Source: a virus (taxonomy: Duplodnaviria; Caudoviricetes). Taken from it: a stretch of DNA of 64,000 bases. Positions within the stretch are counted from its first letter, which is position 1. The number at the start of each line of letters is the position of its first letter. The stretch covers positions 1-64,000 of the IMG/VR virus record IMGVR_UViG_2785511464_000001, one strand, 5' to 3'. This document shows, in pieces, positions 2,012 through 62,471 of this stretch. The notes beneath the pieces were generated by a model, which worked only from the letters and a program-made list of their open reading frames with translations, did not search any database and was not told where the DNA came from. The position numbers and the translations under genes were made by a program.

Positions 2012-2420
2012 CCGATGCATCTTCAAAGCACAGTGAACGGGTGGGGAACAAATATGGGGGGATCGGCTGCAACGGGTGTGTGCTTCCATCAATGCGCACC
2101 AGCCTGGGTGGTCCCGCTTGAGTTCAAGGCCGTGGCTTAGATGGTGTTTCGGCTTGGACTTCCTCGGTGGATATTAACCTTTGAGAAGTGCAAGTAATTG
2201 CACACTCACGGCAACACGGTAAGGTAAGTTAACAACCAGTTCACTAAACCAAGGAGGGTGCATTGAACGACGTCACGGAGGGGGCATCGGGGCGGAAGTT
2301 TCCGTCCGGCTTGGCCTGGAGATTTAGACGATCACCTGCAGCTGTACCGCAGGGGCCAGACCGTACCGCCGGGCTGTCTTTTGGCTCGGCTGTCGTCTTG
2401 CAATTAATTGCACAACTGGA

Positions 2421-2951
2421 TTGACAGCGATGCACATGTCCCTGTTCACTGACGCGTCCCACTGCCCAAGTACTGGTGCAGCTGGCTGGGGCGCTTGGGC
2501 CAAATGCAATCTGTGGTCGTCCGGCGCATTATTTGGTGGCGGTTTTAAGTCTTTATTGAGCGCCAGTCATGAGGCTGAGTTGTGTGCCATTGCGAACGCG
2601 ATGCACGTGCTTGGTGCAGGAGGGCATCTGTCAGGGGTGACCGTCCTAATGATCCAGTCAGACAATCTGCGTGCCCTCGGATTGGTGAAAGCCAGAGTCC
2701 CAAGAGCTGCCATTCGAAACCACGCAGATGGCGCAAAAGTGCCGGACCTGACACGGGTCGTTCTATCCGAGGCGGAGCAGAAGGGGCTTGGCATCATTGA
2801 GAGTGAGTCCACAAAGGGAGGGTTCTCGATCCACTTGCGCCATGTGCGCGGGCACAGGAGGGGACCGTCCCGGCAGTGGGTTAACAGGCAATGCGACCGG
2901 ATCGCGAAACAGCATATGTACGAGCGCCGTGGGCGCATCGGGAAGGAGTAG
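2421..2951 (+). CDS. RNase H-like protein (copy 1)
   Basis: FTDAS, AELCAI, IQSDN, HVRGH, NRQCD match the RNase HI D-E-D-H-D set; start may be the ATG at 2430 or 2436. Confidence 0.8.
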   Translation: MTAMHMSLFTDASHCPSTGAAGWGAWAKCNLWSSGALFGGGFKSLLSASHEAELCAIANAMHVLGAGGHLSGVTVLMIQSDNLRALGLVKARVPRAAIRNHADGAKVPDLTRVVLSEAEQKGLGIIESESTKGGFSIHLRHVRGHRRGPSRQWVNRQCDRIAKQHMYERRGRIGKE

Positions 2952-2957
2952 GTACTG

Positions 2958-3406
2958 ATGGACAGAGGTAATTGCGTTCGGTTCGACCGCATCGCACAGC
3001 CGGGGGAGGTGTCGCTGCTGCTTGGGGTTTTCAGGTCAAACGGGGAGACGGCTTCAGCGTCGAGTACCTGATGTTTGCGCACACGATCCCGGAGGACGGC
3101 GTATTCATTGCCGAAGGGATGACCCACGAGCTGACGCTGCATATTCTTGCACCGACGGTGCCGATTGATTTTGAAAGAGACCTGTTTCAGCAGCCGGCGC
3201 TGGCTCCGGTTGTGCCTGCCATCTACGGTTTCCAGTGGGACGCCAACGCGTGCGACTGGCTCGACACGGGGTCTGGGGGGGTGACCGAACTGCTTCGGAC
3301 AGCCGGGGCCTCGTTCGAACTGGAGACACTGGACGAGTACACGGACAAGGTGGTTGCGGGGAAGGCCCCGCTCTACCGTGAGGAAGAACTGCTGGCGGCT
3401 GAGTAG
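2958..3406 (+). pseudogene. Hypothetical protein, apparently frameshifted near 3040
   Basis: The ATG at 2958 follows an SD but its frame stops early; one extra G in the GGGG run at 3042-3045 joins it to ORF 2972-3406. Confidence 0.45.
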
Positions 3407-3562
3407 CTGCTGCAGAGGGGAACAACCCACGGCATAGAACCGTGGGTGATCCCGCCTCGCCTTATGCAATTAATTGCACTATTATGGGCACGTTCTCCTT
3501 GAGCCCGGAGTCGAGCTATGCAATTAATTGCATTGTTGTTTTGCGTCGGCCAAGGAGGGACG

Positions 3563-3988
3563 ATGAGCATCCAGATCGGATACAGCCGAAGGGCTGCGAG
3601 CACCCAAGCTTTCGCGATGATCGCCGAAGGCTGGAACGACCTCGTGCAGGAAGGCTTCACGCCTGATCTCGTGGGTACGTGTCCCGTCAACGCCAATTCC
3701 GAGGTCATCTACGCGGTGAGCTCTGACGGTGACGTCGTGGGTGTTCTGACCTGGGAGTACCGGGACGATAAGGATGCTTACGAAGTCACCCTCGGCTACG
3801 TCGAACCATCGAGCAGGCAGCAGCGTGCATTCACGGAGATGTTCAAAACCTTGCATGACAGGGCGCAGAGCAAGGGCGTCTCGACCGTGTATGTACCGGT
3901 CCACCCCAATAACGAGGTGGCCCGGCTGGTGTTGGCGAAACTCAAAGCCAGCGCCGTCTCCGTGGTGTACGAACATGCTGTCGCCTAA
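3563..3988 (+). CDS. GNAT family acetyltransferase
   Basis: YVEPSSRQQR (motif A-like) and VHPNNEVA (motif B); CCAAGGAGGG SD before ATG 3563. Confidence 0.75.
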   Translation: MSIQIGYSRRAASTQAFAMIAEGWNDLVQEGFTPDLVGTCPVNANSEVIYAVSSDGDVVGVLTWEYRDDKDAYEVTLGYVEPSSRQQRAFTEMFKTLHDRAQSKGVSTVYVPVHPNNEVARLVLAKLKASAVSVVYEHAVA

Positions 3989-4309: not shown

Positions 4310-4337
4310 TTGATAGCCGCCGATCCTGTGCTAGAGT
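4310..4337 (+). promoter_or_regulatory. Sigma70-like promoter with a palindrome just downstream
   Basis: TTGATA-N16-TAGAGT; palindrome variant at 4341-4354. Confidence 0.55.
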
Positions 4338-4372
4338 GAATGAAATTAATTGCACAAGCCAAGGAGGGCAGT

Positions 4373-6269: not shown

Positions 6270-7190
6270 GTGGCAAAACAATCGAGCAATGCGGGTGCCG
6301 GTGCGGTCCGGCCTTCTCCTTCCCGGAGAGGAAGCCTCATCGAAGAGAGCCGCCCGCTCCAAACCTACCTGACCAGTCTTGATGCTATGCGACCAGCGCT
6401 GGTGCCCTCCGGGGCACCTGCGTTCGCATTCTCGCCGCTGAACGTGATGCCTAAGATCGCTCTGGGCAAGCTCGATGTCGAGCAGGCATCCGGGGGGCTG
6501 GTGCTCTCCGATGGTGGCGGGGTCCGTGTCGCGCCGACCGCCAGCCCGAGCGAATACTATCAGACGCTCCTCGAACTGCTGGAAGATGGTCGCCCCCTCC
6601 ACCTCGTCCCAGAGCCCATTGCCGCCCACTTCAAGCTTGGCGGCTACACCGTCAGCAAGCAGCACGACGAGTATGTGATGCGCACCGAGGACGTTCAGAC
6701 GTTCCCCGGCAAGCGCAACCGGCAGATGCGCGGCAACGTCAACAAGGCGCGGCGTCTCTGCGAAGTCGAGGTGTTCGACGGTGGCGACCCTGCGGAGTAC
6801 AAGGCGCTGGTCAAAACCTGGTATCGCCAGAACGCGGACCTGAAGTTCCGCACCTACGACAAGACCAGCATCGACTGGCTCCTCGAAAACTGGAGCGAGC
6901 TGGTTTCGCATGTGCCCGACCTCCTGTGCCTTGGTCTGCGCCATGATGCGCAATTAATTTCACTGAACATGGGTTGCCGGCTGACCGACCAGCACTGGAC
7001 CGCGTACACGCAGCGGTTCGACCGGCACGCTCCGGTGAAACACGCGAACATGCTCGGCTACCAGACGCTCGCGCACTCCTTCGCGGACTGCGCCCTGGAG
7101 AATGACGGGACCGCCGACACCAAGACGATCCGAGAATGGAAGGACCGGCTGGTGTCTCATAAAATCAGTTTCTACACGGTGAGGAAATGA
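6270..7190 (+). CDS. DUF2156 / MprF-C-like (Fem/GNAT fold) aminoacyl-transferase-like protein, no membrane domain
   Basis: EYVM...FPGKRNRQMRGNVNK resembles the DUF2156 'DY.Y...L.GK....KR...NK' pattern; ends with ND-G...IREWK. Confidence 0.5.
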   Translation: MAKQSSNAGAGAVRPSPSRRGSLIEESRPLQTYLTSLDAMRPALVPSGAPAFAFSPLNVMPKIALGKLDVEQASGGLVLSDGGGVRVAPTASPSEYYQTLLELLEDGRPLHLVPEPIAAHFKLGGYTVSKQHDEYVMRTEDVQTFPGKRNRQMRGNVNKARRLCEVEVFDGGDPAEYKALVKTWYRQNADLKFRTYDKTSIDWLLENWSELVSHVPDLLCLGLRHDAQLISLNMGCRLTDQHWTAYTQRFDRHAPVKHANMLGYQTLAHSFADCALENDGTADTKTIREWKDRLVSHKISFYTVRK

Positions 7191-9092: not shown

Positions 9093-9992
9093 ATGGCACT
9101 GAACCTCAAGAAGAAGAAACCGCAGTCTGCGGCCAAAGATGCGAAATTAATTGCACAGCCCGACGGCGCAGACGAGACCATCGACTTCCGCATCGTTCCC
9201 ATCGACGACATCGAGCCGAACGAGTACAACCCGAACGACATGGAGGCCGAGTTCTTCGAGGCCATCGTGCAGCAGGTGAAAGAGGAAGGCATGAACCAGC
9301 CGATCCTCTGTCGGGCCAATCCCGAGAAGGAAGGCAAGTTCCTGATCGTGGATGGCGAGCATCGCTGGCGCGCGTCCAAGGTGGCCGGCAAGAAGGTGAT
9401 CCCGATCATCGTCGTGCCGTTCGACGCGAAGCAGGCCAAGGTGCGCACGCTGTCGATGAACAACCTTCGCGGCCAGAATATCCCGATCAAGTTGGCCCGG
9501 CTTCTGGTGGACCTCCACAAGGAGTACAGCGCCAACGAAATCCGGGCGATGACCGGTATCGGCGAGGATGAGCAGACCTCCGTCCTCAGCCTCCTGAAGG
9601 TTCCCGACTTCAACCCCTCCGACGGCATCAAGATGACGGCTCAGGACGTCGAACGTCCGATCTCGGTCAGCCTTCTGCTGCTCCCGGACGAGCACACGGC
9701 CTACACCACCGCCATGAAGAAGGCGATGAAGGTCGCTGGCGATGACGTGACGGCGCTGATCGGTCACGAGGTTGCCAGCTACGACAACGCCATGAAGGCG
9801 GCTATGGGGCTGGCCGGCGCGAAGCTCAGGAACGTTGCCCTGGCACTGATCTGCGAGACGTTCAATCAGATGCCCAAGGATCAGCAGGCCGAGATCGCCA
9901 AGGCCGCCCACGCGAAGATTTACGACAAGCTCGCCAATGACGCAGAGGCGAAGGAGACCAAGAAGCAGGCGGCGGCGAAGAAAAGCGGATGA
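9093..9992 (+). CDS. ParB/Srx-like domain protein
   Basis: IEPNEYNPN, QPIL, IVDGEHRWRA, NNLRG. Confidence 0.88.
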   Translation: MALNLKKKKPQSAAKDAKLIAQPDGADETIDFRIVPIDDIEPNEYNPNDMEAEFFEAIVQQVKEEGMNQPILCRANPEKEGKFLIVDGEHRWRASKVAGKKVIPIIVVPFDAKQAKVRTLSMNNLRGQNIPIKLARLLVDLHKEYSANEIRAMTGIGEDEQTSVLSLLKVPDFNPSDGIKMTAQDVERPISVSLLLLPDEHTAYTTAMKKAMKVAGDDVTALIGHEVASYDNAMKAAMGLAGAKLRNVALALICETFNQMPKDQQAEIAKAAHAKIYDKLANDAEAKETKKQAAAKKSG

Positions 9993-13148: not shown

Positions 13149-13198
13149 TGCAATTAATTGCACATTTTCCTTGATCGGGAGCGGCCAAATGCTAGGAT
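13149..13198 (+). promoter_or_regulatory. Palindrome plus promoter for the PPDK operon
   Basis: Palindrome 13149-13162, 8 bp, TTGATC-N16-TAGGAT. Confidence 0.65.
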
Positions 13199-13230: not shown

Positions 13231-15222
13231 GTGGATAAGCGAATTTTCAGGTTCTCCCAGAACCATTGCGATTGGGCCGGCGACGATGCGGATGCCAAGA
13301 AAATCCTTGGCGGCAAAGGTGCCGGCCTCGTGCAGATGTGTCGTGCAGACATGCCTGTCCCGCCGGGCTTCACGATCACCACGGAAGTCTGCAACGTCTT
13401 TCTGGCCATCGACCCGGAGCAGGGCAGCATCGGCACGAAGGACGAGTTCCTTGACCACCTCATGCAGGGCGTTGCGGAGCATGACCAGTGGCTGAGCACC
13501 GAGTTCGGGTTCACGCCCCTCGTGTCCGTGCGCTCAGGCGCACCGATCTCGATGCCCGGTATGATGGATACGATCCTGAATGTCGGCCTGACGGACGAGA
13601 CGCTTCCCGAATGGGAGGATCGCATCGGACAGCGCGCCGCGCTCGACAGCTATCGCCGCCTCATCCAGATGCTCGGAGCCACGGCCTATGGCGTCCCCAT
13701 GCCGCTGTTTGACGAGCACCTTGAGGACATCAAAGAGACCGCCGGGGTCTCCGACGACAAGGAGCTGACCGTTACGGACCTCCAAGAGCTCATCGAGTGC
13801 TACAAGATGGTGTTTCAGGCGGTCGTGCAGCATGCGTTTCCGCAGAGTCGCACAGAGCAGCTGCGCGCCGCCGTGCGGGCCGTGTTCGATAGTTGGATGA
13901 ATGAGCGCGCCATCGAATACCGGAAGCTCAATCAGATCGACGGGGCGATGGGCACCGCCGTGAATATTCAGGCGATGGTCTTCGGCAACATGGGTGACGA
14001 TAGCGGGTCAGGCGTGGCGTTCACCCGAGACCCTTCGACGGGCGAGAACCACACGATGGGCGAGTACCTGCACAACGCGCAGGGTGAGGACGTGGTGGCG
14101 GGTATCCGAACACCGTACTCGCTGGACGAACTCTTTGAGACGAAGAGCCCGCCGTGGGCCACGGAGTTCTGTACGCTGTGCTCCGATCTGGAAGATATGT
14201 ACGACGACATGGTTGACTTGGAGTTCACCGTTCAGCAGGGCAAGCTGTGGTTGCTCCAGAGCCGAGTTGGGAAGCGCTCCGCGCGCGCCGCCTTCAAGAT
14301 CGCCGCCGATCTGGTGGAGGAAGGTGTGATCGACAGGGGTGTGGCCCGGTCCCGGCTGACGGCACAGCAGTTCAAGACGGTGCGCAGGCCGACGATTGAC
14401 CCGTCGTTTGACGTGCCCCCGGCGCTCGTTGGACTGCCTGCGTGCCCCGGCGTCGTGACAGGCGTGCCCGTTCTCTCGTCGAAGGATGCAATTAATTGCA
14501 ATGAACCGTGCATCCTGATCACCAACGAGACGACGCCAGACGACATCGGAGGCATGAACGCCGCCGTGGGCGTGCTGACGAAGACTGGTGGTGCCACCAG
14601 CCACGCGGCAGTCGTTGCTCGGGCGATGGACAAGGCTTGTGTGGTTGGTTGCACCGGGCTCGATATTCTTGGCGACTGGACGGACGTGACGAAGGTCACA
14701 ATCGACGGGGCGACCGGCAGAGTCTGGTTCAATGTCGATGTTCCCGTGATCGACAGTTCCGATGCAAAGGAAGTCGCCACCGTGATGGGGTGGTGTATGG
14801 AGGTTCTGGGCTGCTGTGAGGCGGCAGTGGTCGATCTTGGCGCAGACAAGCCGCACACGATCATGGCCGCACACTGGTGGGGCAACGAAGATGTTCTGAA
14901 CGCAGTCCTTGACGGAATTGCCGAGCTGCCGAGCAGGCAGCACGTCACGCTCGACACGCGGTCGCCGAACGATCTGGCACCGTTCTGTGACTACATGCTG
15001 GCGGACTGCTTCGGCGAAACTGCGCCCGATCATGAGTTCAAGGAGGTCATAATCAGTGTTCTGAAGCAGAGGAGCAAAGAGCTGAAGGGACTGTCCCTCG
15101 CACCGTGGGAGGATATGCCGGAGCTCTACTCTGAAGGGTTCACGCCCGCTGGCGCAGGGTCGCAACACGTACCATTGGCCGTGCCCGCTGACTATGCCGC
15201 CTTCTCCGTTCTGGGTCGGTGA
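13231..15222 (+). CDS. PPDK-like dikinase with ATP-grasp and phospho-His domains but no pyruvate-binding barrel
   Basis: LGGKG, VSVRSGA..SMPGMMDT, QAMVFGN, GEDVVAG, DLEFT, LQSR, GGATSHAAVVAR; 663 aa, with only about 160 aa after the His domain. Confidence 0.9.
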   Translation: MDKRIFRFSQNHCDWAGDDADAKKILGGKGAGLVQMCRADMPVPPGFTITTEVCNVFLAIDPEQGSIGTKDEFLDHLMQGVAEHDQWLSTEFGFTPLVSVRSGAPISMPGMMDTILNVGLTDETLPEWEDRIGQRAALDSYRRLIQMLGATAYGVPMPLFDEHLEDIKETAGVSDDKELTVTDLQELIECYKMVFQAVVQHAFPQSRTEQLRAAVRAVFDSWMNERAIEYRKLNQIDGAMGTAVNIQAMVFGNMGDDSGSGVAFTRDPSTGENHTMGEYLHNAQGEDVVAGIRTPYSLDELFETKSPPWATEFCTLCSDLEDMYDDMVDLEFTVQQGKLWLLQSRVGKRSARAAFKIAADLVEEGVIDRGVARSRLTAQQFKTVRRPTIDPSFDVPPALVGLPACPGVVTGVPVLSSKDAINCNEPCILITNETTPDDIGGMNAAVGVLTKTGGATSHAAVVARAMDKACVVGCTGLDILGDWTDVTKVTIDGATGRVWFNVDVPVIDSSDAKEVATVMGWCMEVLGCCEAAVVDLGADKPHTIMAAHWWGNEDVLNAVLDGIAELPSRQHVTLDTRSPNDLAPFCDYMLADCFGETAPDHEFKEVIISVLKQRSKELKGLSLAPWEDMPELYSEGFTPAGAGSQHVPLAVPADYAAFSVLGR

Positions 15223-16300: not shown

Positions 16301-16350
16301 TGCAATTAATTGCAAAATCTGGTTGCTCCCATGTGGCAATAAGGTAGGAT
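16301..16350 (+). promoter_or_regulatory. Palindrome plus promoter
   Basis: Palindrome 16301-16314, 8 bp, TTGCTC-N16-TAGGAT. Confidence 0.65.
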
Positions 16351-17475: not shown

Positions 17476-18149
17476 ATGTCCAAAGTAAAGAACATCGACG
17501 ATTACCTGTATGGGGACCGTCACAGCGCGCGGAAGATCAAGGCGGGGAACCACACTGTCTATGACGCCTCCGGGGGCACAGCGGCTACGGAAAGCGCTGC
17601 TACCATAGCCACCCACCCCTGAAGCTTCCGGGGAGCGACTTGGTGATTTACGGGGGCAGCTGCCTGAACCCGGCGGTCACGGATGCCGACATCTACATCG
17701 GGTTTGACTCCGGCATGAGCTTCACGCCACGGCAGTTCCCGTGGACCGAAGGCCACGAGTTGTTGTTCAAGATACAGGACATGGGCACTCCGAATAACGT
17801 CGATCAGTTCCGCCAGCTTATCGACTGGACGTACCAGCAGCTGCAGGAGGGGAAGAAAGTCCACTGTGGTTGCATTGGCGGGCACGGGCGGACAGGGACG
17901 TTTCTCGCTGCCCTGGTGTCTCTTTGTGGCGAGAAGGACGCCGTGTCCTATGTCCGGGAGAACTACTGCCACAAGGCAGTCGAGAGCCGCCCCCAGATCG
18001 AGTTCCTGTCCAAGCACTTCGGGATCAAACCTGCCAAGGGATCGAAGTCCACGGGCGGCTCCGCGTACGGCAGTAAAGTCTCGACGGCCCTGAAAGAAAG
18101 GACGTTTCCGCCCATCAGGAACAACGGCTGCATCTGGGACGAACTGTGA
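17476..18149 (+). CDS. PTP / dual-specificity phosphatase (CX5R), copy 2; apparent frameshift at the G5 run 17572-17576
   Basis: IQDMGTP, HCGCIGGHGRTG, KAVES..Q; the SD-led ATG at 17476 is in a different frame from the catalytic ORF. Confidence 0.8.
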
Positions 18150-18196
18150 AATTAATTGCACTTTTCCCTTGCTTGGGAGCCCCCGGAAGGTAGAAT
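18147..18196 (+). promoter_or_regulatory. Palindrome plus promoter
   Basis: Variant 18147-18160, 8 bp, TTGCTT-N16-TAGAAT. Confidence 0.65.
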
Positions 18197-22044: not shown

Positions 22045-22106
22045 CCACGATGTGCAAATAATTGCACAAGAGGGTGACATGAGCAGAGGCTGCGCGAGAG
22101 GACAGA

Positions 22107-25893: not shown

Positions 25894-25988
25894 CTTTCCT
25901 GTTTCTGGTCTAGCGCAGCATCCATCGGATTTGCAATTAATTGCACAAACGCGCGTACGAAACTAAGGTCCAGCCATGTCAGTGAAAC

Positions 25989-38000: not shown

Positions 38001-39804
38001 CTTCGCCTCCGGGCTGTCCGATGCGCTGGTCGGCGTCTTTACGGGGCAGAAGGGGGCCATCACTGGTCTTCTGCGCAACCTGGCGACCGGCATGGTCCGC
38101 CTGGGCGTGAACCAGATCATGAAGAACATGGTGCAGAGCTTTCAGGGCGGCGGTGGTGCGTCCGGGATGGGCAAAGGCGGCATCGGCGGGTTCTTCTCCC
38201 GCCTGTTCGGTCGGGGCGATCAGGAGCAATCCCCGGCCAAGGACGCAGCCAGCACCGTGCAGGATGCCGTGCAGCAGATGACGGCGGCCAATATGACGGT
38301 AACCGCCGGCACCGTGATGATCAACGGGTCTCCGGTAGGCATGCCCGGCGTTGGCGGCCCTACGACCGGTTCGATCTCCCAGCGTGGCGGAATGATCTTT
38401 GATGAGCTCATGCCGTCCGGTGGCGCGGCCAACAGCAACCTCGCCGGCCTTGGGTCGCAGATCAACTCGGCTGTGGCTCAGTCGGCGTCCTCTGCCGTGG
38501 ACAACGCCACGAAGTTCCTCGGCATGAGCGAGCATACGAACGCCAGTCAGCTGAACTCGTTTATGAAGTCGCAGGGCGTGGACATCGACGCGGCCAAGAC
38601 CGCTTGGTGCGCGGCCTTCGTCAACACGAACCTGGAGGCGGTCGGTGTGGATGGCACGGGCTCGCTGGTAGCCAACTCGTTCCTGAAGTGGGGCGACGGG
38701 GTGAACCCGCAGGACGTGCTCAAGGGCGACGTTCTCGTGCAGCACCGTAACAAAGGCTACGGAAACACGGGCGGGCACGTGGGCTTCGCCACGGGCAACA
38801 CCAAGATGTCGGAGCAGGGGCTTCTCCTGGAGATGCTGTCCGGCAACGAGAAGGATCGCGTCCAGAAGTCGTGGAAGCTCGCCGACCAGGTAGCCGTGCG
38901 CCGCGCCAGTGCCGAGATGGGCAACGCCCCGCTGGATGCCATGTCCACGGCCTCCGTTCCCGAGGTGTCCCAGCTGACCAACCAGTGGCAGCAGCAGATG
39001 GCGACGGCAAACGCGAATATCGCCCAGCAGATGCCCCAGGCGTTTCAGGCCCCGATGCAGAACGTCGGCCAGCAGTTCGACCAGGTGTTCGCTCAGGGCG
39101 GCAGCGCCTTCCAGCAGGTGGCCCCGCAGATGCAGAACATCGCCCAGCAGGCGCAGTCCGTGGTGCCACAGCTTGGCGGTGTGGGGCAGGGCCTGACGAG
39201 CCTCATGGGTCCGCTCGGGCAGATGGTGCCGGGTCTGAACGACTTCCAGAACGGTCTTCAGGACGCCCTCAAGTCGATCCTCGGCTCCGGCGGTGGCGGC
39301 GGTGGGGGTGGTGGCATCCAGTCCATCATGAACCAGCTGATGGGCTCCCTCGGCGGCGGTGGCGGCGGTGGCATGTTCGGCGGCATCTTCAGCATCTTCA
39401 AGCTTCTGCTCGGCGGCCTGTTCCACAAGGGTGGCGTGGTCGGCGACGGTATGCCCGCCTCGGGTATGCGCGCTCTCCCGGCCAGCGCCTGGAACAACGC
39501 TCCGCGCTTCCACAAGGGTCTGAAGAGCAACGAGTACACCGCCATCCTGGAGCGCGGAGAGCGCGTCCTGACGGCCAACGACGACCGGCGGAACATCAAT
39601 CTGATCGAAGGTCTCTCCGAGCGTCTGGATGCCCAGAGCCGGCAGCGCGCCCAGAACGATCGATCCCGGTTCGGGAACGGGTCTCAGTACAACCAGAACA
39701 TCACTGTTTACGCCGAGGACGCGAACAGTTTCCGCCGCAGCGAAGGTCAGCTCATGGCCGACAGCTCGGTGCAGCTGCGCAGGCTCGGTGGACGAAACAG
39801 CTAA
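35002..39804 (+). CDS. Tape measure protein with a TIGR02594/CHAP-like peptidoglycan hydrolase domain
   Basis: 1600 aa, helical; LGNNSAASESEI; WCAAFVN...GHVGF...SGN; FHKGGVVG. Confidence 0.93.
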   Translation: MNGEELEFILRMRDEATAILDKVGGGLGKAGKGAKGFSDENKKVSRSLGDVVKQAKAATAALGGMYGSMRMLRSATNAWSDYQLGLVGVVKTTGMAGRELDVFRGKFDQLDRTMKGISTQQIHALSETVGQLGVTGSDNIVAMTEVLAKLGVTTDIVGQEGASSVARILTLTGEGAKGVREFGDALNYLGNNSAASESEILRMATVLAQSTAEFGISGKNILALSAGARQLGVSFELFGTSSGRVLRNLRDGMMANTTGFRTFLSVAGMTREEFQKLLAEKPEQVIVRFAQAYAQMTGSGGSAGFLQALGLNTDEIKRVFGAIGVQVEAMQEKLNLVQSDEMYGALDREAEQFFAAQANQLDGMAKAWKSFNASVGEALAPLTGPVIEGVTQALYGLSDAISGLPAGIKQVAAAGIVLAPAIGGIAAAFKVLKPLLVSVGMWKTASGGVGILAKAVGGLKGAVSLAGRVISRTWPVLVGLLAGEAARAGGDWIAEWAERNLGETTLSKLAAFRKEYEGFFDFMAQDLVTGVIQSGPNAGINYRTGQREYEQNDKGEWVKYTPKVELQPDWGDGIGSTLRDRVQDEVDAAGPVRIPVTEEDYDALKALNSQIGLLEDIRAQEEALNRIRESGMDMLRNHNDALSEQDVERAQRLLDLKKEAAADPVGWSLRDLDSEIDAARAVTSEQKHQLAIREKVREIVEQTGESEERVLGRVTAKMNELRDAQSKMNFNDMIRDYNSDIEAARAVTVEARMELEVREAIRDLQEEGKKLDEEQVAAIRGKVQELYKVQQANAFEDQMRAARSSLDIARATTEAERERLQIKQQIDAFERQHGKLAPEDRQQLAAALAAKNQAEAFGQLRSTLDPVGEATRQYEQNVQTLNQALADGSITAQQYQDMLNRLNVTTQDARDPFGAQIRSMQEALQVARMTGDYRDADVKTLQTINRLQEQGVTLSQTQKDQIAAMNRELQDIEKARGSGLQGWASGIGSLKDNLMDLTKDFASGLSDALVGVFTGQKGAITGLLRNLATGMVRLGVNQIMKNMVQSFQGGGGASGMGKGGIGGFFSRLFGRGDQEQSPAKDAASTVQDAVQQMTAANMTVTAGTVMINGSPVGMPGVGGPTTGSISQRGGMIFDELMPSGGAANSNLAGLGSQINSAVAQSASSAVDNATKFLGMSEHTNASQLNSFMKSQGVDIDAAKTAWCAAFVNTNLEAVGVDGTGSLVANSFLKWGDGVNPQDVLKGDVLVQHRNKGYGNTGGHVGFATGNTKMSEQGLLLEMLSGNEKDRVQKSWKLADQVAVRRASAEMGNAPLDAMSTASVPEVSQLTNQWQQQMATANANIAQQMPQAFQAPMQNVGQQFDQVFAQGGSAFQQVAPQMQNIAQQAQSVVPQLGGVGQGLTSLMGPLGQMVPGLNDFQNGLQDALKSILGSGGGGGGGGGIQSIMNQLMGSLGGGGGGGMFGGIFSIFKLLLGGLFHKGGVVGDGMPASGMRALPASAWNNAPRFHKGLKSNEYTAILERGERVLTANDDRRNINLIEGLSERLDAQSRQRAQNDRSRFGNGSQYNQNITVYAEDANSFRRSEGQLMADSSVQLRRLGGRNS

Positions 39805-39830
39805 GCAATTAATTGCAATCGGAGAGAGAC

Positions 39831-43644: not shown

Positions 43645-44096
43645 TGCTTGAGCGCAAGAGGATCGTGGACATGGCGCGGGGTTGGCTGGGCGTCCGGTAT
43701 CGGCATCAGGGGCGGTCCAAGGAGCGTGGTGTCGATTGCGTCGGCCTCATACTCGGGGTAGGTGCTGAGCTCGATTTGCAATTAATTGCACCGCAGTTCT
43801 ATGCCGAAAGCCCAAGCTCCAATCTGGTCCTGCGCTACGCCGATCAGCAGCTGAACCCCATCGAAAGCCGGGAGTTGGCTCTGGGGCGGGTAGCGATCCT
43901 CTGGGGCTTCGACCGTAACGAGGCGCAGCACCTCGCAATCGTCGGCGAGCACGCGGGCCGGCTGACCATGATCCACTCCTTCAGCAAGGCGGGGAAGGTT
44001 CTGGAGCACAGCTGGGACAGTTTCTGGATGAAGCGTCTGGTGCGGGTCTACGAGTTCCCCGGCACCGCGCCGTTGGAGGAGAAGACCTATGGGTAA
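43644..44096 (+). CDS. NlpC/P60 tail peptidase
   Basis: WLGVRYRHQGR...GVDCVGL, HLAI, IHS. Confidence 0.9.
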   Translation: MLERKRIVDMARGWLGVRYRHQGRSKERGVDCVGLILGVGAELDLQLIAPQFYAESPSSNLVLRYADQQLNPIESRELALGRVAILWGFDRNEAQHLAIVGEHAGRLTMIHSFSKAGKVLEHSWDSFWMKRLVRVYEFPGTAPLEEKTYG

Positions 44097-46704: not shown

Positions 46705-49700
46705 ATGGCACAGACCCCTCGACTTGGCGTCCGTCTGATGGCGTCGAATGACATTCAGAAAGAGGTGGTGTTCAACGAGGCTGCCGTGGTCTTTGACGCC
46801 ATGGTTTCGCGCTCTGCCGCAGCCATTCTGGCAAACCCTCCAGCCAGCCCTGCGGCGGGTGACACCTACATCATCGGCACCCCCGCATCCGGCGTGTGGG
46901 GTGGTCGTGAGAACTACGTGGCGGTCTACTTCAACGGCTGGCGCTTGTTCTCGCCGATCCAGAAGATGAAGTTCTTCAACGAGGACACCTCGTCCTTCTG
47001 GACCTACAGCGGCTCCGGCTGGACTGAAGACCCCGCAGGCACACCGTCCACTCTGGATGATCTCACGAATGTGGGCGTCGCTGCTCCGAACGACGGTGAC
47101 GTGTTGACTTACAGTCTCGCGGACAACCGATGGGTCGCGGGCTCGGTGTCGGTCGTCACCGCCTTCACCAATCTGACCGACGTCGCGCTGGCCGGGCTCG
47201 CTGACGGCCAGATGCTCGCCTGGGATGCGACCAACGGTGTCTGGGTGAACGTGAACCCGCCTTCGGGGGGCGGCGCAACAAATCTGGACGAGCTGTCTGA
47301 CGTGTCTGTCGGAACACCCGCCAATGGTCATCTGCTGACCTGGCACGATGGGCAGGCAGTCTTTCAGGAGTACGCATTCCCTGCTGCCGAGCTGGGGCAC
47401 CTCACCGATGTGGTGACCGCAGGCGCTGAGCCGAATGACGTTCTGGCGTTCAACGGGTCCGCCTGGGGGCCGAGCCCCGCCGTCATCACTTACTCGTTCC
47501 TCGGCATGGTCGATGGTCCCCAGACGATGGAGACCTTCGCTAACCACTTCCTCGTGGTCGATCCGACCGAGAGCTTCCTGGAGTTCCGGTCGCTGGCCGA
47601 GCTGATCGCCGAGCTGGAAGACTTCAACCTCCGAGACCTCTCGGATGTCACGGCTCCGAGCGACCCTGCAGTCGGCATGTTCCTGCGCCTGAACAAGGTC
47701 GGCGGCGAGTATGTCTACGACTACGCGAGCCAGACGGACTACTCGATTGCGGCCAGCGACAGTGGCAACCCACTGACCAGCAAGATCGAGAGCCTGAACT
47801 TCAGCGGGTTCGACGTGTCGATGCCGGCGGAGGGGCACCTGATCCTGACCGCCCAGAACGCGCTCGACTTCCTCGGTGAGGGCTTGCCCGTCGAAGGCGA
47901 TCCCGTCGATGCAATTAATTTCATTGGTGCGGGCGTCAACGTCACGAACATCGATGGCACCCTGACCGTGGACATCGGTGATCAGGAGCTGGTGGCCCGT
48001 CTCGGCGATCTCGAAAACGTCGATCTCACCACCCCACCCGTGGATGGCAATGTCCTGAAATATGACGGCCTCACGCAGTCCTGGGTTGCCGGCGTCGGGG
48101 GCGGGGGTGGCGGCGCACCTATCGGTGACAGCGAGTATGTCCCTGCGACCTATGAATACGGCCCGTTTGCGCCTCCCGTGGCAGCGATGTTCCCCGGTCG
48201 ACACAACGCCCCCTCGGCCAATTTGACCGAAGTCGCGGCGCGGGGCCTCGTGGTGCAGGGTGGGGCGCAGAGCAGCGGCGCAAAGCACGCTCTGGTCTAC
48301 CGAGACCTCGCCGTCCGGGAGGAGCCCTGGGTGGTGACCGCCCGCGTCGTGCCGGCGTCGTTCCAGGTGCCTGGGCATATGGGCGGCGTCGCCATCCAGC
48401 GCGCCTTCAACGATGCCTTCGTGTTCCTCGCCCTCGGCAACTCCAGCACCGATGCTCAATCCCAGCTGCGCCTTGGTTGGGTCAGCCCCTCGGGTGTCGA
48501 GACGATCTTGACCACCGAGCCCAACCTGTACAACTGGCTCCGGCTCGGGTTCGACGGGGATTTCATCCGTGCATGGGTCTCCTCGGACGGTCTTGTCTGG
48601 CAGAACTTCGGCAGCCCGGTGGACCCGGCGGCCACGCTGCAGGGCGTACCGGATCGCGTCGGCATCACCAACCGGTCGAATGCGGCGCATGACGGCACCG
48701 TGGGAACCCTCGTCACGTTCTGGGAAGACCCGGACTTCCCGGCGGGCACGCGCACACAGCAGGGTGTCGTGGCTCTGGGGTTGGGTGGCCTTCAGGACGT
48801 GGACCTGACGGTTCCGCCGCAGGATGGCGAAACCGTCGTCTGGAACGCTGTCCAGCAGGCGTGGGTGCCTGGTGCCGCCTCGGGTGGCGTGGACGTGGGG
48901 GCGTCCGACGAAGGCGATGTCCTCCAGTTCGTCAACGGAGATTGGGCATCTACGACGGTCGTAGATGCCTTGAACCACCCTCGGCAGGTGCCGCCCGTCG
49001 CGCCACAGATCGTCCAGCACAAGCTCAGCCCACCTGTAGAAAGCGGTAATTACTCGGTGACGCTGGACTTCGCTCCGACGGAGGGTAACTGGCTCATCTG
49101 CATCCTGACCTATCAGTCTACAGTCCCGGTGGCGGAGGCTGGCTGGACGGCAGTCCCGGTCTCTACCACGGGCGCGCGTATCAACACCGTTGTCTATTAC
49201 CGGAAGGCCACCGCCGGATTGGGACCTGTCCTTCCCGTAGCTGATGCTGGCGCTGCGGAGTACGGCTACGCGGTAGTCTATGAGGTCGCGAGCCAGACCC
49301 CGGATTGGGCCTCGCTTGCGGAGGTTGTTCAGGGTGCGTCCGACGACCAACTGGCCGCACCTTATGATGGGACACCGTATGTAGCGTCCGGCCCGGCACG
49401 CACGGTGCTGCTTGCCTACAGCAACCGCACTACATCCACCTCCGACAATCAGGGGCTAGGGGCCGGGTGGACTGAGGACCAGAACTTCGACGGTCAGTCC
49501 GTCGGCGAAAATCGCGACTTTGTGTGTGGGCACGCCTTTCCCGCAGACCAGGAGACGCTGACGCCTTCTCTGGTCAATCTCACAGGGGAGAGCCATGTCG
49601 GTTATGCGATGGTGGTCCTCGCACCCGTCACGGAGCCTCCACGTGGAGTGCGCCTCGCTGATCTGTACGATGTGGAGGCGGAGACCGTAGAGGAGGGGCA

Positions 49701-55183: not shown

Positions 55184-55201
55184 ATTTGCAATTAATTGCA
55201 T

Positions 55202-55234: not shown

Positions 55235-55340
55235 TAAACCGCGTACCGGTTTGTCGAGGTTCCCGCGACACATGGCAGGGGGACTGCTATACAGGCGGAA
55301 ATGCAATTAATTGCACAAGCCCGCAGGTGTCGAGGTTCCC

Positions 55341-57177: not shown

Positions 57178-57384
57178 CCAGCGAAGAACGTGACCCTTGG
57201 CCGGCGATCCTCGTGATCGGTTGGCTCTTTCTTCTGCTGCTCGCCCTGCCGGGCACCGCGCGCACAGCGACGCCAGCCGAGATCGACCATCCACAGGCAA
57301 AATGCGGCGAGTGCAATTAACTGCACTTGCCTCGCCCAGACAATCTGGCATAGTTGAGGGGTAAGCCAAGGAGGGCGAATACCT

Positions 57385-58596: not shown

Positions 58597-58637
58597 TAGA
58601 ATTGAAATTAATTGCATCAAATCAAAGGAGTGACCTG

Positions 58638-59330: not shown

Positions 59331-59350
59331 GGCGCGCAATTAATTGCAAG

Positions 59351-59628: not shown

Positions 59629-60566
59629 TGTCGAACATGCTTGCACGAGCACACAAGGCTGCCGGGGACATGGTGTCTGCCGTGGTCTTCCTCCGCATAG
59701 CCTTTCGATACCATCAGGCGGTGAGGGCCGGGCGGGAGTGGACCGCGCAGTCCTACGACGACCTCATGGGCGAGACAGGCTGCTCTCAGAAGCAGATCAA
59801 ACGGGCTCTCGCGAAGCTTCGGGAGGCCGACCTGATCGTCTCGAAGCAGGGTCTTTTCGGCAACCGGAACGTCAATCATTTCCAGTTGACGGGGAAGGGG
59901 CTGAAGGCCCTTGAGGGACCGCCCAAGCAGACCCTGGAGGGACCACCCAAGCAGGCCCTACAGGGACCGCTCTATATACAGGGAGAGACAACAGGGAGTG
60001 ACAACATGGAGTTTAGCGGGAAGCCTCCCGCCAAGGCGGCACGGAAGGGTTCGGGAAAGCTCGGGAAAGGGATGACCGTATCCGAAGTCCTGGCGTCTCA
60101 GGCGGCGAAGAAGCATCACCACAAGCCCGATACGGTGAAGCAGCTGGAGTTCGTCTGGAAGGAGACGTTCGCCGAAGTCTACGATCAGGGGATGGTCCAC
60201 CTGACGAAGAAGCAGGCCGGGTTGCTGAAGCACTTCCTCGCGAAGTGTCCGCAGGGCTCTGCCGCCGAGGTGCTTGAGTGGGCAATCCGAAACTGGATCG
60301 AGTTCGTGAAGGATGTCGAGACCAAGGCCGGCACGAAATGGACACCCAGCCACCCCGATCTCGAATTTCTCTTGAAACACGCATGGATCGCTGTAGACTC
60401 GGCCCTCTCTCAGAAATCGCCGGAGCCGGTGAAGCAGGAGGCTACTGCCGAGACTTCGACGAAAGAGAGTGTGCAATTAATTTCACAAGACGATGACGAC
60501 GATCAGCCCAAGACCTTCGAGGAGCTGATGGCCATCCTCGGCTCGGGAGACAAATCGAAGCTATGA
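59628..60566 (+). CDS. Replication initiator (winged HTH, lambda O-like organisation)
   Basis: SYDDLMGETGCSQKQIKRALAKLREADLI; internal repeats; upstream of loader and DnaB. Confidence 0.7.
   Translation: MSNMLARAHKAAGDMVSAVVFLRIAFRYHQAVRAGREWTAQSYDDLMGETGCSQKQIKRALAKLREADLIVSKQGLFGNRNVNHFQLTGKGLKALEGPPKQTLEGPPKQALQGPLYIQGETTGSDNMEFSGKPPAKAARKGSGKLGKGMTVSEVLASQAAKKHHHKPDTVKQLEFVWKETFAEVYDQGMVHLTKKQAGLLKHFLAKCPQGSAAEVLEWAIRNWIEFVKDVETKAGTKWTPSHPDLEFLLKHAWIAVDSALSQKSPEPVKQEATAETSTKESVQLISQDDDDDQPKTFEELMAILGSGDKSKL
59906..59977 (+). repeat. Three 24-bp tandem repeats (putative iterons / origin)
   Basis: ggcccttgagggaccgcccaagca / gaccctggagggaccacccaagca / ggccctacagggaccgctctatat, each with an inverted core CCCTnnAGGG. 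Confidence 0.7.
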
Positions 60567-61132
60567 CCCTGCTTGCCGATCCTTACGCATCCGGCGTCTT
60601 GAAGAAGGAGCACCACGAGCGGCTTGTCGCCGATCTCGAAAGCTTCGCGCGGGACGCCGGCATTCAGCCGCACTGGATTTGGTCGCAGCTGCCTGAAGAC
60701 ATGACGGGCAGCCAGCTGGCCTATCTGAGGCAGTTCCGAAAGCACGCTTCCGAGGGCACGTCGGGACTGATCATCCTCGGCAAGAACGACAAGGGGTTCG
60801 TGGAGGCGCACATGTCGGCCATGGCCGGGGCTCTGGTGCGAAACTTCATCCGGGCTCGGGTGATGACCCTCGGGACGGTCATCGACCTTCTGGCGAAGCA
60901 GGAGATGCCCGACCTGACCTGCCTCCTCATTCCGAACTTCTTCCTTACTGCCAGCGAGACCGGGACCATCGCGCCTTGGCAGGTGAACTCCCTGTTCGAT
61001 TACCTGACCTATCGGCAGGTGGCCGGCCTGCAGACGATCCTCTACGCGACCGATCTGGGGCTGCTGGGCAAGGAGTACGGGCTGGCGTTCAAGCGCCATA
61101 TCGAAGTCCATTACATGCAAGCAAAGTTTTAG
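60563..61132 (+). CDS. Degenerate DnaC-like helicase loader
   Basis: Between initiator and DnaB; AAA-like layout without an intact Walker A. Confidence 0.5.
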   Translation: MTLLADPYASGVLKKEHHERLVADLESFARDAGIQPHWIWSQLPEDMTGSQLAYLRQFRKHASEGTSGLIILGKNDKGFVEAHMSAMAGALVRNFIRARVMTLGTVIDLLAKQEMPDLTCLLIPNFFLTASETGTIAPWQVNSLFDYLTYRQVAGLQTILYATDLGLLGKEYGLAFKRHIEVHYMQAKF

Positions 61133-61144
61133 GGGGGCGGACCT

Positions 61145-62419
61145 ATGTCCATGGGCAAGATGTTCCTGTCAGCGGTGCTGGCAGAGGGGTCCGTTGGGGC
61201 TCTGCTCGAATACGGGCGGATCGAACACCTCTTCAAGGCCAATGAGATCGATGCGTATGAGTTCGTCCGGGAGTTTGTGAAGGAGTACCAGTCCCTGCCG
61301 TCCGAGGAGACGATTGAGGCGCACACGGGCACCACGCTGATGCCCCATGTCGAGCCGGCGGCTTATTACCACGACCTGATGGAGCTTCGGCACACGGAGC
61401 TCAGCCTGAAGAAGGCGATGAAGCAGGCGGGCGAGCTCTTCCTTCCCGAGAACAAGGATATTCCGAGCGCGTTGCAACTGATGACCAACGCGGTCATGGA
61501 GCTCGCCTCGCAGAAGGTCCAGAAGCAGGTGGTGGACTTCCGCCACGCTTACGAGATCGTGGTGAATGACTACGCCTCGAAATGGAACCTCGGAGAAACG
61601 AAGGGCCTCCACTTCGGGTGGCCTTACATCGATGCGATGACCGGCGGGCTCGGAAGAGGGGACGTCGCCAGCTTCGTTGGCCGGCCTGCGGCGGGCAAGA
61701 CCTGGCAGCTTCTATACGCGGCGCACAGCGGTTGGAACAAGGCGGGCAAACACCACGACCCGGAGGCCGACCAGTCCCGCCTGTTCGTCTCGATGGAGAT
61801 CGGCCTGCTGCCGATCCAGCAACGCCTTGCCGCCATGCAGACGCACGTGCCGGCGCTCAAGCTCAAGAACGCCTCGCTCGGCTCCGGGCTCATCAAGAAC
61901 CTCAAGTCGGGGCTGGCCGAAATTCAGGACTACGGGGCTCCCTTCTGGGTCGTTGACGGCAATCTGGCCGCGACGGTCGAGGACATTTGGGCGCTGGCCC
62001 GCCAGCTGAAGCCTGGGGCGATCTTTATCGACGGGGCCTATTTGGTGAAGCACCCGACCGAGAGGGACCGCTTCCGGCGCGTGGCCGAGAACGCCGAGCT
62101 GATCAAGCAGGAGCTGGCCCCCATCGCTCCGACCGTGTGCAGCTGGCAGTTCGCCAAGTCGGCCAGCAAGAAGAACGCCAAGAAGGGCGAGAAGGTCACA
62201 ATGGACGACATCGGCTACACCGACGCCATCGCGCAGGTGTCGTCCCTCGTCCTCGGTCTGTTTCAGGAGGACAGCGTGGAGACAATCAAGCAGCGCAAGG
62301 TGGAAGTGCTGAAGGGGCGTAACGGTGAGACCGGATCGTTCTCCACCGCATGGGACTTCGAGACGATGGATTTCACCGAGATCGTTCAGGAAGACGTCGA
62401 AGACTTGCAGTTCCTCTAG
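61145..62419 (+). CDS. dnaB: DnaB-like replicative helicase
   Basis: GRPAAGKT, FVSMEI, FIDGAYL, LKGRNGE. Confidence 0.9.
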   Translation: MSMGKMFLSAVLAEGSVGALLEYGRIEHLFKANEIDAYEFVREFVKEYQSLPSEETIEAHTGTTLMPHVEPAAYYHDLMELRHTELSLKKAMKQAGELFLPENKDIPSALQLMTNAVMELASQKVQKQVVDFRHAYEIVVNDYASKWNLGETKGLHFGWPYIDAMTGGLGRGDVASFVGRPAAGKTWQLLYAAHSGWNKAGKHHDPEADQSRLFVSMEIGLLPIQQRLAAMQTHVPALKLKNASLGSGLIKNLKSGLAEIQDYGAPFWVVDGNLAATVEDIWALARQLKPGAIFIDGAYLVKHPTERDRFRRVAENAELIKQELAPIAPTVCSWQFAKSASKKNAKKGEKVTMDDIGYTDAIAQVSSLVLGLFQEDSVETIKQRKVEVLKGRNGETGSFSTAWDFETMDFTEIVQEDVEDLQFL

Positions 62420-62421
62420 TG

Positions 62422-62471
62422 TGCAATTAATTTCTCAAATCTCTTGTCCGGCACCGGCAATCCGGTAGGAT
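62422..62471 (+). promoter_or_regulatory. Palindrome plus promoter
   Basis: Variant 62422-62435, 8 bp, TTGTCC-N16-TAGGAT. Confidence 0.6.

Follow-up and report, generated by a model that had tools for sequence, protein, structure and literature searches.

A palindrome dispersed over the prophage

The window analysed here, 64,000 nt in length, corresponds to bases 1–64000 of a 95,770-bp provirus record (G000), a prophage integrated through a serine recombinase. Scattered among genes for DNA polymerase, portal, capsid, tape-measure and DnaB-like proteins is a 14-bp palindrome, TGCAATTAATTGCA (the box), of which the window holds 13 exact copies and 28 copies with up to two mismatches, compared to 0.00 and 0.03 expected from dinucleotide shuffles. 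Counts and coordinates agree exactly with the original prediction. The entire prophage contains 25 perfect boxes, 46 with at most one mismatch and 52 with at most two. The boxes of the window and the promoter-like sites next to them are listed below (window coordinates; boxes carry no strand; CDS, coding sequence; G001 to G004 are related phages).

2189..2202: box, 1 mismatch; the leftmost, just within the left end of the prophage
2399..2412: perfect box; 17 nt 5′ of ATG 2430 (RNase H-like, 173 aa)
3465..3478: perfect box; forms a pair with the next, 54 bp away, ahead of the GNAT-XRE operon
3519..3532: perfect box; the other member of this pair, 30 nt 5′ of ATG 3563 (GNAT)
4310..4337, + strand: putative promoter-like site TTGATA-N16-TAGAGT; start site within box 4341
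4341..4354: box, 1 mismatch; lies around +1 of promoter 4310, where a bound protein would repress; GTG 4373 follows after 18 nt; also present in G001
6949..6962: in-CDS box (AQLIS, TTA), 2 mismatches; kept in G001, perfect in G003
9142..9155: in-CDS box (AKLIA, TTA), early in the ParB_N gene; also present in G001
13149..13162: perfect box; 1 nt past a stop, 8 nt upstream of a -35; kept in G001, G004 and G003
13171..13198, + strand: promoter-like site TTGATC-N16-TAGGAT before the PPDK gene
14487..14500: perfect in-CDS box in the PPDK gene (AINC); phage DLP5 has AIDC at the same place, in the same frame
16301..16314: perfect box; 10 nt past a stop, 8 nt upstream of a -35
16323..16350, + strand: promoter-like site TTGCTC-N16-TAGGAT
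18147..18160: box, 1 mismatch; its TGA ends the phosphatase gene, and a -35 follows after 8 nt
18169..18196, + strand: promoter-like site TTGCTT-N16-TAGAAT
22053..22066: box, 1 mismatch; separates DNA polymerase from portal; 4 of 4 IMG/VR relatives have a perfect copy
25932..25945: perfect box between MuF-like gene and protease; kept in four relatives
28846..28859: box, 1 mismatch; 8 nt past the capsid stop, followed directly by a terminator hairpin (28861-28891)
31278..31291: perfect junction box; 26 nt before GTG 31318
33223..33236: perfect box; 4 nt past a stop, then a G+C hairpin and T run
33970..33983: perfect junction box
34974..34987: box, 1 mismatch; directly past a stop, 14 nt before ATG 35002 (tape measure); a promoter cannot fit
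39804..39817: box, 1 mismatch; overlaps the tape-measure stop, next ATG 13 nt on
43777..43790: perfect in-CDS box (LQLIA, TTA); perfect in G001
47910..47923: in-CDS box (AINF) within a tail gene; also present in G001
55187..55200: perfect box; 3 nt past a stop, then a hairpin
55302..55315: perfect box; 25 nt before ATG 55341
57312..57325: box, 1 mismatch; abuts a possible -35 (tentatively TTGCCT-N16-CATAGT) before the AAA ATPase gene
58603..58616: box, 1 mismatch; 6 nt past a stop, with the RBS directly after
59335..59348: box, 1 mismatch; then a hairpin and T run
60472..60485: in-CDS box (VQLIS, TTA) within the gene for the O-like initiator; also present in G001, G004 and G002
62422..62435: box, 2 mismatches; 2 nt past the DnaB-like stop, with a -35 following after 8 nt
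62444..62471, + strand: promoter-like site TTGTCC-N16-TAGGAT

The boxes share a 12-bp core, GCAATYRATTGC, with nearly invariant TGCA arms, and flanking preferences (-1 G/+14 C and -2 T/+15 A) lengthen the palindrome, weakly, to 18 bp. Their commonest variant is TGAAATTAATTGCA, together with its mirror, both as predicted, and asymmetric variants are found in both orientations on the coding strand. This degeneracy is symmetric, affecting one arm at a time, as expected of a site for a homodimer, and supports the earlier proposal of a dimeric binder. About 40 of the 52 boxes are intergenic, though at least ~82% of the DNA is coding, and many begin 0–14 nt past a stop codon; most copies do lie at gene junctions, as had been claimed. 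The boxes are confined to the phage, with 0 copies in the 17.5 kb of host DNA flanking the prophage, and the tyrosine-integrase gene has no box.

Selection, conservation and spread of the box

Six copies in the window had been noted as lying in frame within genes. They read AQLIS, AKLIA, AINC, LQLIA, AINF and VQLIS, four of them using TTA, a codon that makes up 8 of the 1,953 leucine codons of the phage; 4 of those 8 lie in boxes. Boxes fully inside confident CDSs number 7, a 17-fold excess over the 0.41 expected (maximum 2) from 200 synonymous-codon shuffles. The sites are also conserved in place: of the 48 boxes that could be mapped, 45 have a counterpart at the orthologous position in G001 (75% DNA identity), and most are kept in G004, G002 and G003 as well (65–72% DNA identity). 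In one relative, box identity is 97.6% at orthologous places versus 68.6% in the 30-nt flanks. In-gene copies are among those retained, with 6949, 9142, 43777, 47910 and 60472 present in G001 and 14487 in DLP5. Together, the in-CDS excess and the conservation in place bear out the suspected selection on the DNA sequence.

Could the boxes act at the RNA level, as junction hairpins or processing sites, or serve as short patches of homology that favour the swapping of modules among phages? They often directly follow stop codons at gene junctions, the relatives are mosaic, and every box is transcribed, because all genes run in one direction. However, 270 box changes across nine phages affect one arm versus 12 that are compensated, 10 of the latter in TM16, whose box centre differs. 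Because changes are one-armed and uncompensated, with variants of either orientation on the coding strand, the box behaves as a DNA site for a dimer rather than an RNA hairpin. Such a hairpin would have a stem of only 5–6 bp (-2.5 to -5.2 kcal/mol), and the boxes show neither the compensatory changes nor the stable hairpin of a structured RNA or intrinsic terminator. As to homology patches, 14 bp is short for homologous exchange, and boxes stay in place within colinear, non-mosaic genes. We thus regard both roles as very improbable.

Variants of the box fill cultured phages, with arrays of the same or nearly the same site in Stenotrophomonas DLP5 (35 boxes, most of them within genes), Vibrio PG28 (~35), Rhodobacter RcZahn (~20) as well as Rhizobium TM16 and Y1_11 (15–17). 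Further arrays occur in prophages or contigs of Burkholderiaceae, Hyphomicrobium, Acetobacteraceae and Loktanella. All carriers belong to one phage family, in whose distant lineages the half-site is spelled differently. Our literature search found no published description of this box system. No integrase is present among the genes listed for the first 50 kb of PG28, though boxes are; judged by these genes, the role of the box cannot be specific to lysogeny.

This distribution also bears on a further reading, in which a host global regulator or nucleoid protein recognizes the boxes and is sensed or titrated by the phage. The 5-N4-5 layout presumably resembles the sites of CRP/FNR-type host regulators. 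Yet the same 14-mer serves phages of Vibrio, Stenotrophomonas, Rhodobacter, Rhizobium and Burkholderiaceae—that is, of alpha-, beta- and gammaproteobacteria—while related lineages spell it their own way, and the host flank is devoid of copies. Because box variants fill related phages of different hosts, the host factor listed among the original candidates is argued against, and we give it very little credence.

Boxes at promoters and beyond

Among the 10 intergenic sigma70-like promoter sites of G000, a box precedes the -35 hexamer by exactly 8 nt in 8 and by 7 nt in one (probably a false call); in the remaining one, box 4341 lies at about +1. These promoters are weak matches with poor -35 hexamers that a generic promoter scan did not call, and their assignment rests on the recurrent fixed geometry. 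The offset between box and -35 peaks at 8 in G000, G001 and G003, at 7 in G004 and at 17–18 in RcZahn (one helical turn more), with no such peak on the opposite strand. In PG28, 12 of 21 near-consensus promoters carry a box 8–10 nt (one 13 nt) upstream of the -35, making two promoter classes, with and without a box; those with a box have the consensus TTGACA-N17-xATAAT. Phage 1.215.A has the promoter-proximal half-box only, 8–9 nt from the -35. Other boxes in G000 overlap a -35 or start site, and most occupy promoter-less gene junctions: about 40 of the 52 have no promoter downstream, several being 13–18 nt from the next start codon.

One way to read this geometry is as a positive promoter element, either a class I-type phage activator site or a specialised UP element contacted by the alpha C-terminal domain of RNA polymerase. 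It would strengthen one temporal class of phage promoters, with the remaining copies as auxiliary or reservoir sites. The spacing shared by G000, G001, G003, PG28 and 1.215.A, the weak -35 hexamers of G000, which might need help, the single half-box of 1.215.A and the two promoter classes of PG28 all speak for it. By the UP consensus, the A+T core occupies the distal UP subsite. For promoter-linked boxes, and for these alone, the AATTAATT core lies between about -54 and -47, within the UP-element position (about -40 to -60). UP elements, however, should occur at promoters only and lack symmetric G+C-containing arms, whereas most boxes are promoter-less and keep TGCA arms that an UP element does not need. 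Moreover, boxes over a -35 or +1 cannot activate, those of DLP5 lie mostly within genes, and the box-promoters of PG28 already match the consensus, so that activation should be needless. A centre near -50 is equally characteristic of sites for class I activators and for repressors. Altogether, we consider a positive element unlikely.

On balance, we lean towards a dispersed operator network, through which a phage-encoded homodimeric global regulator would control transcription of the whole phage chromosome, mainly by silencing it. At almost every sigma70-type phage promoter, the dimer would be centred near -50, 8 nt upstream of the -35, with the A+T core where an UP element would sit. Over a -35 or start site it would take the classic repressing positions. 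At the majority of boxes, located at promoter-less junctions and, in a few cases, in genes, a bound dimer could only block elongating polymerase or bridge boxes. The main effect would be silencing, by repressor and roadblock.

A candidate binder and related systems

What might read these sites? Two proteins named in the original prediction fall away: the XRE-HTH protein (4006) is absent from box-bearing DLP5, PG28 and 1.215.A, and the ParB_N protein (9093) is conserved across its kin in its N-terminal domain alone, which is not a DNA-reading part. A repressor encoded outside the window, also among the earlier options, fits best, and we infer from sequence and structural modelling that the most likely binder is phrog_17202, a family-wide protein of unknown function encoded at record positions 71032-72240. 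All box-bearing genomes tested have it as part of their gene core. The protein shows identities of 37–52% to DLP5, RcZahn, TM16, PG28 and 1.215.A and of 66–86% to closer IMG/VR relatives, with an invariant LGWTKLK helix, and its gene always has its own predicted box-promoter. In G000 and close relatives, this promoter carries two conserved boxes, the second of which provides the -35; in a Hyphomicrobium prophage, the second one overlies both -35 and spacer. The binder's own gene would be under negative autoregulation. Co-occurrence of binder and box is confounded by common descent, all carriers being of one family, and some distant carriers of the gene have few canonical boxes.

From its acidic N-terminus, the protein is predicted to run through a basic, histone-H1-like linker and a helix-turn-helix domain similar to that of ParB/KorB to a ribbon-helix-helix (RHH)-like tail. 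Foldseek, Pfam and PDB sequence searches returned nothing significant; ParB-HTH and DUF1016_N clusters are among its Atlas neighbours. The domain model (pLDDT 87) was superposed with VIA-align on the DNA-binding domains of ParB on parS (6s6h_B; Z 8.2, rmsd 7.8 Å, 129 aligned) and KorB on operator DNA (1r71_A; Z 6.5, rmsd 4.2 Å, 107 of 114) and on Spo0J (1vz0_A; Z 6.5, rmsd 3.9 Å, 105 aligned), all at Z <9, a level that for an all-helical domain can reflect a common arrangement; the top score went to an unrelated protein, Raf1 (Z 8.8). The tail aligned with an RHH antitoxin domain (Z 4.5, rmsd 2.4 Å, 43 of 43). No match to the ParB_N CTPase domain was detected in the candidate or 32 homologues.

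Such features might also suit architectural or partition sites, at which a ParB/Noc-like or histone-like phage protein would nucleate and condense, segregate or package the chromosome, with secondary effects on transcription. In line with this, boxes are dispersed genome-wide at 0.54–0.64 per kb in five genomes, many are in genes in DLP5, which is reported to persist as a phagemid, and the candidate has the H1-like linker and ParB-like helix-turn-helix. Spacing in G000 is slightly more even than random (CV 0.79), yet only marginally so, with ~5% of random placements as even. Against it, G000 is integrated, the linker is missing in DLP5, no ParA-type partner was found among ~45 proteins scanned, and architecture needs neither an exact 8-nt register nor overlap with a -35 or +1. 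We judge it improbable. The original prediction had offered silencing or organization of the DNA; because of the promoter register and the -35/+1 overlaps, the operator network fits better, and pure organization or partition less well.

Large temperate genomes with one repressor and many operators, at promoters and elsewhere, include phage P1 (C1 operators) and Streptomyces phage phiC31, whose CIRs are intergenic inverted repeats. Both have fewer sites (roughly 17–18) than found here, P1 operators are asymmetric, and the binders are unrelated to our candidate; we know of no cross-class conservation of either site.

KorB has 12 OB operators on IncP plasmid RK2, likewise a short palindrome dispersed over a mobile genome, with some copies just upstream of a -35, others promoter-distant, and global silencing as the result (PMC11790492). 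The boxes show the same range: some precede a -35 by 8 nt, some cover a -35 or +1, and others are remote from promoters. The candidate is modelled to superpose on KorB/ParB DNA-binding domains (Z 6.5–8.2). In contrast to KorB, there are ~50 sites of a different sequence, no KorA-like partner was identified, and the candidate has an RHH-like tail, an H1-like linker and no detectable CTPase domain, so that nothing implies a sliding clamp. Stoperators, the sites of the prophage immunity repressor in cluster A mycobacteriophages (L5 gp71), are believed to halt polymerase during elongation and also to repress promoters (PMC9283540). Like the boxes (52, ~40 intergenic), they are dispersed by the dozen in a temperate genome, mainly in short intergenic gaps of co-directional operons, but they are asymmetric, orientation-dependent and read by a monomer (PMC9283540), whereas the boxes are palindromic, with symmetric degeneracy and variants in both orientations, and also hold the fixed -50 register; hosts and proteins are unrelated. 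Cluster O mycobacteriophages carry >30 genome-wide copies of a 17-bp palindrome, TGTTCGGNNNCCGAACA, some between and some within ORFs, for which the accessible part of the source names no function or binder and reports no fixed promoter register (PMC4351075); sequence, phage family and hosts differ from ours. In this prophage, the palindrome probably serves to dock a dimeric regulator, encoded by the phage itself, that is connected to nearly all of its promoters and gene junctions.

Dispersed palindromes and selection on the DNA site

The 14-nt palindrome TGCAATTAATTGCA, referred to here as the box, has 13 exact copies in the window and 28 copies with up to two mismatches (shuffle expectation 0.00 and 0.03, respectively), and our motif scan reproduced the position of every copy listed in the original prediction. 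Over the whole 95,770-bp IMG/VR provirus record, whose first 64 kb make up the window, 25 perfect boxes and 52 with up to two mismatches were found. Aligning all 52 copies revealed weak symmetry beyond the arms (G at −1 is matched by C at +14 and T at −2 by A at +15), so that the full site is an 18-bp palindrome. Boxes range from 2189 to record position 93879 and hence over the entire phage, at a spacing whose regularity is only marginal; 17.5 kb of scanned host flanks contained none.

A codon-usage model assigns nearly all genes to the plus strand. At the right end lies a serine recombinase, probably the integrase of the phage, after which host record CP029208.1 (3.98 Mb) continues with alphaproteobacterial housekeeping genes; the tyrosine recombinase probably belongs to a neighbouring island. 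From the ParB_N protein, the gene order runs through terminase, PPDK-like protein, two phosphatases and DNA polymerase A to portal, head and tail, followed by an O-like initiator, DnaB, primase, RecA, RuvC and many small genes.

Features of the record outside the structural and replication genes
Window 1-1908, minus strand: tyrosine recombinase, beside transposases, defence-like genes, an AAA_13 ATPase and a T5orf172 gene
Window 5237-9072: dCTP deaminase, DUF488, LPG_synthase_C-like and DruA-like proteins, 5′ of the ParB_N and terminase genes; possibly an operon for DNA modification
Window 13231-19021: module between terminase and DNA polymerase, with the PPDK-like, two dual-specificity phosphatase-like and two unknown proteins; conserved from the prophage to phages RcZahn, TM16, DLP5 and Vibrio PG28
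Record 88826-89314: homologue of a GcrA-like cell-cycle regulator (E 9e-14)
Record 94109-95770, plus strand: large serine recombinase, abutting host genes

About 40 of the 52 boxes are intergenic, though at least 82% of the genome is coding. Many start 0–14 nt past a stop codon, which in several cases is itself provided by a TGA... variant of the box, and terminator hairpins directly follow four boxes. In a terminator scan, the box at window 13148-13163 and the T-rich sequence beside it were called as a weak hairpin of terminator type, and a short T run follows several boxes (13149, 18147).

The six copies predicted to lie in frame within coding sequences translate as originally read. TTA accounts for just 8 of the 1,953 leucine codons in the phage, four of which are inside boxes. 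When synonymous codons were shuffled within genes, 0.41 boxes (maximum 2) were expected wholly inside confident genes, versus 7 observed, an excess in keeping with the selection on DNA sequence that had been proposed for these copies. Four IMG/VR relatives with 65–75% DNA identity to the prophage carry 0.57–0.64 boxes per kb. The relative G001 has a box at the orthologous place for 45 of 48 mappable boxes, most of which are also kept in more distant relatives; the predicted in-gene copies at 6949, 14487, 43777, 47910 and 60472 are among those retained. Orthologous boxes are 97.6% identical, as compared to 68.6% for their 30-nt flanks, and the copy within the PPDK-like gene recurs at the identical place and frame in DLP5 (AINC versus AIDC).

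Do the boxes act as DNA or as RNA? Across nine genomes, departures from the consensus affected one arm only in 270 cases and were compensated in 12, ten of these in TM16, whose centre differs. Asymmetric variants occur in both orientations on the transcribed strand, and the box RNA hairpin is worth only −2.5 kcal/mol. All three features speak against the boxes being RNA processing sites, the less likely reading; as judged from sequence, the changes form the independent half-site degeneracy pattern of a DNA site read by a dimer.

Conservation across phages and promoter register

By DNA polymerase identity, the nearest cultured phages are Rhodobacter RcZahn (62%) and Rhizobium RHph_TM16 and Y1_11 (54%), followed by Stenotrophomonas DLP5, DLP3 and Summit (43%) and several Vibrio phages (42%). 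The box system is present in every cultured phage examined, with 35 copies of TGCAAT(CA/TG)ATTGCA in DLP5, ~20 copies in RcZahn, 15–17 copies of TGCAA-N4-TTGCA in TM16 and Y1_11, and ~35 copies of TGCA(A/G)TTAA(T/C)TGCA in Vibrio PG28, of which eight match the window's box exactly. Arrays also occur on contigs of Burkholderiaceae, Hyphomicrobium, Acetobacteraceae and Loktanella, as well as in 25 of 31 further viral contigs encoding a protein of the family phrog_17202, and a few distant lineages have altered half-sites (GAAAT..ATTTC, CCAAT..ATTGG, GACAT..ATGTC). A host factor, one of the binders originally considered, is a less likely reader of the boxes, because these are common to phages of three proteobacterial classes and their spellings are lineage-specific, which favours a phage-encoded reader. 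Among its four tRNAs, DLP5 has an annotated suppressor-type tRNA (tRNA-Sup-CTA, DLP5 record 50270-50342).

An intergenic scan for sigma70-like promoters over the whole phage returned ten candidates. In eight, a box lies exactly 8 nt 5′ of the −35 (in the window at 13149, 16301, 18147 and 62422); in another, probably a false call, the distance is 7 nt, and box 4341 falls on the start site of the last (TTGATA-N16-TAGAGT at 4310). The offset from box to −35 peaks sharply at 8 in the prophage and its relatives G001 and G003, and at 7 in the relative G004. In RcZahn it peaks at 17–18, an additional turn away, and no comparable peak was seen on the opposite strand. The TTGnnn/TAGGAT promoters of the prophage are weak matches that a generic promoter scan does not call, and these putative promoters therefore rest on the recurrent composite motif. 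Independent support for the link between box and promoter comes from the Vibrio phages: in PG28, 12 of 21 near-consensus TTGACA-N17-xATAAT promoters have a box 8–10 nt (in one case 13 nt) upstream, often within terminator–box–promoter cassettes, and phage 1.215.A has the promoter-proximal half only, TTAATTGCA, 8–9 nt from TTTACA. The box-linked early promoters of PG28 further contain a second inverted repeat, TTGAC-N7-GTCAA, across the −35 and spacer (for example, PG28 record 40779-40840, 48270-48330 and 52038-52100), suggestive of an additional operator that a different regulator would use.

The fixed offset places the box centre near −50, a position suited to an UP element or class I activator. 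The main rival to silencing is activation from −50, or a dual role like that of lambda CI at PRM. This, however, would leave aside that most boxes have no promoter, that several lie 13–18 nt from the next start codon, and that most DLP5 boxes are inside genes. We lean towards the boxes forming a dispersed operator network of a phage global regulator, with silencing as its main effect. Such a regulator would repress at boxes covering the −35 or +1 and interfere with upstream contacts at −50, while protein bound at gene junctions would block or bridge; at promoter-less and in-gene boxes, its options would be limited to obstructing polymerase or bridging to other boxes. That the boxes are architecture or partition sites, or recombination patches, appears less likely.

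A candidate reader of the boxes

Comparing proteomes, we found few non-structural, non-replication proteins common to all box-bearing phages. One family was present in all those compared:

Record 71032-72240, outside the window: phrog_17202 protein, 402 aa

It shares 37–52% identity with the versions of the cultured phages, and its LGWTKLK helix, with the core GW(T/S)KL, is invariant; all named ones among ~265 database homologues are hypothetical proteins. The gene always has its own predicted box-promoter. In the prophage and its close relatives, a conserved double box is found there whose second copy supplies the −35 (TTGAAA); in a Hyphomicrobium prophage, the second box lies over the −35 and spacer, and the sole perfect TTAA-type box of DLP5 stands ahead of this gene. 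An occupied second box would exclude polymerase, and the regulator would so control its own gene, the geometry being typical of negative autoregulation.

AlphaFold models of residues 165–402 (pLDDT 87) consist of an all-helical domain and a strand–helix–helix tail. In VIA-align, the ParB and KorB DNA-binding domains are among the best matches to the domain (Z 8.2, rmsd 7.8 Å, 129 aligned; Z 6.5, 4.2 Å, 107 of 114; Z 6.5, 3.9 Å, 105), with Raf1 scoring as high (Z 8.8), and the tail matches an RHH antitoxin domain (Z 4.5, rmsd 2.4 Å, 43 of 43). Foldseek gave no significant match, and Pfam and PDB sequence searches returned no family beyond low-complexity H1-like hits; ParB-HTH and DUF1016_N clusters are among the atlas neighbours. 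A ParB/KorB-like HTH fold is consistent with these models but unproven.

We tentatively infer that the phrog_17202 protein may be the box binder, with somewhat less than even confidence. The originally suggested repressor outside the window thereby gains, in part, a family-wide candidate. The other phage proteins then named fare worse: the XRE protein (4006-4308), which could be a local immunity repressor, was discarded as a binder serving the whole family since it has no tblastn homologue in box-bearing DLP5, PG28 and 1.215.A, and the ParB_N protein (9093-9992) is an unlikely binder, only its N-terminal DGEHRWR-type domain being conserved (prophage, PG28, DLP5). A MerR-like protein of DLP5 and PG28 is absent from the prophage. 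A 172-aa paralogue of the phrog_17202 HTH part (record 78516-79034, E 7e-10), without the C-terminal tail, could be a second reader or modulator of the boxes.

Relation to known systems and implications

To our knowledge, dispersed operator arrays are known from few model systems only, namely L5 stoperators, P1 C1, phiC31 CIRs and RK2 KorB. The P1 C1 operators and phiC31 CIRs are functionally similar, yet the box array is a member of neither. It would work like KorB-OB of RK2 (PMC11790492), although, unlike KorB, the candidate binder has no ParB CTPase domain, and like the stoperators of cluster A mycobacteriophages (PMC9283540), which, unlike the box, are not symmetric. The closest published phenomenon as such is a 17-bp palindrome of cluster O mycobacteriophages, unexplained in the accessible text of the source (PMC4351075). 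Our literature search found no paper with the 14-mer or its DLP5 variant, and the DLP3 and RcZahn papers mention no repeat or motif of this kind.

A far-reaching, and in our estimate rather doubtful, extension is that a sizeable and widespread siphophage family (80–100 kb) of alpha-, beta- and gammaproteobacteria shares an undescribed, chromosome-wide control, wherein one conserved protein (a ParB/KorB-like HTH with RHH tail and, in many cases, a histone-H1-like linker) would act on ~35–50 palindromic boxes. Each box would double as the UP-element position of phage promoters, so that the entire genome would toggle between an open and a silenced state according to box occupancy. The protein and the spelling of its boxes would coevolve lineage by lineage.

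What makes the box system of good interest is its wide conservation together with cultured, testable members: one array is preserved nearly letter for letter, and in a precise promoter register, among phages with only 42–62% DNA polymerase identity and with hosts from three proteobacterial classes. With DLP5/DLP3, PG28, RcZahn and RHph_TM16 in culture, experiments are feasible without delay, and therapeutic use has been considered for DLP3 and DLP5. The box is a simple sequence signature for spotting this phage family in metagenomes, suggests a candidate function for the widespread phrog_17202 proteins, and offers a testable way into the on–off control of large temperate and phagemid phages that have one-directional genomes.
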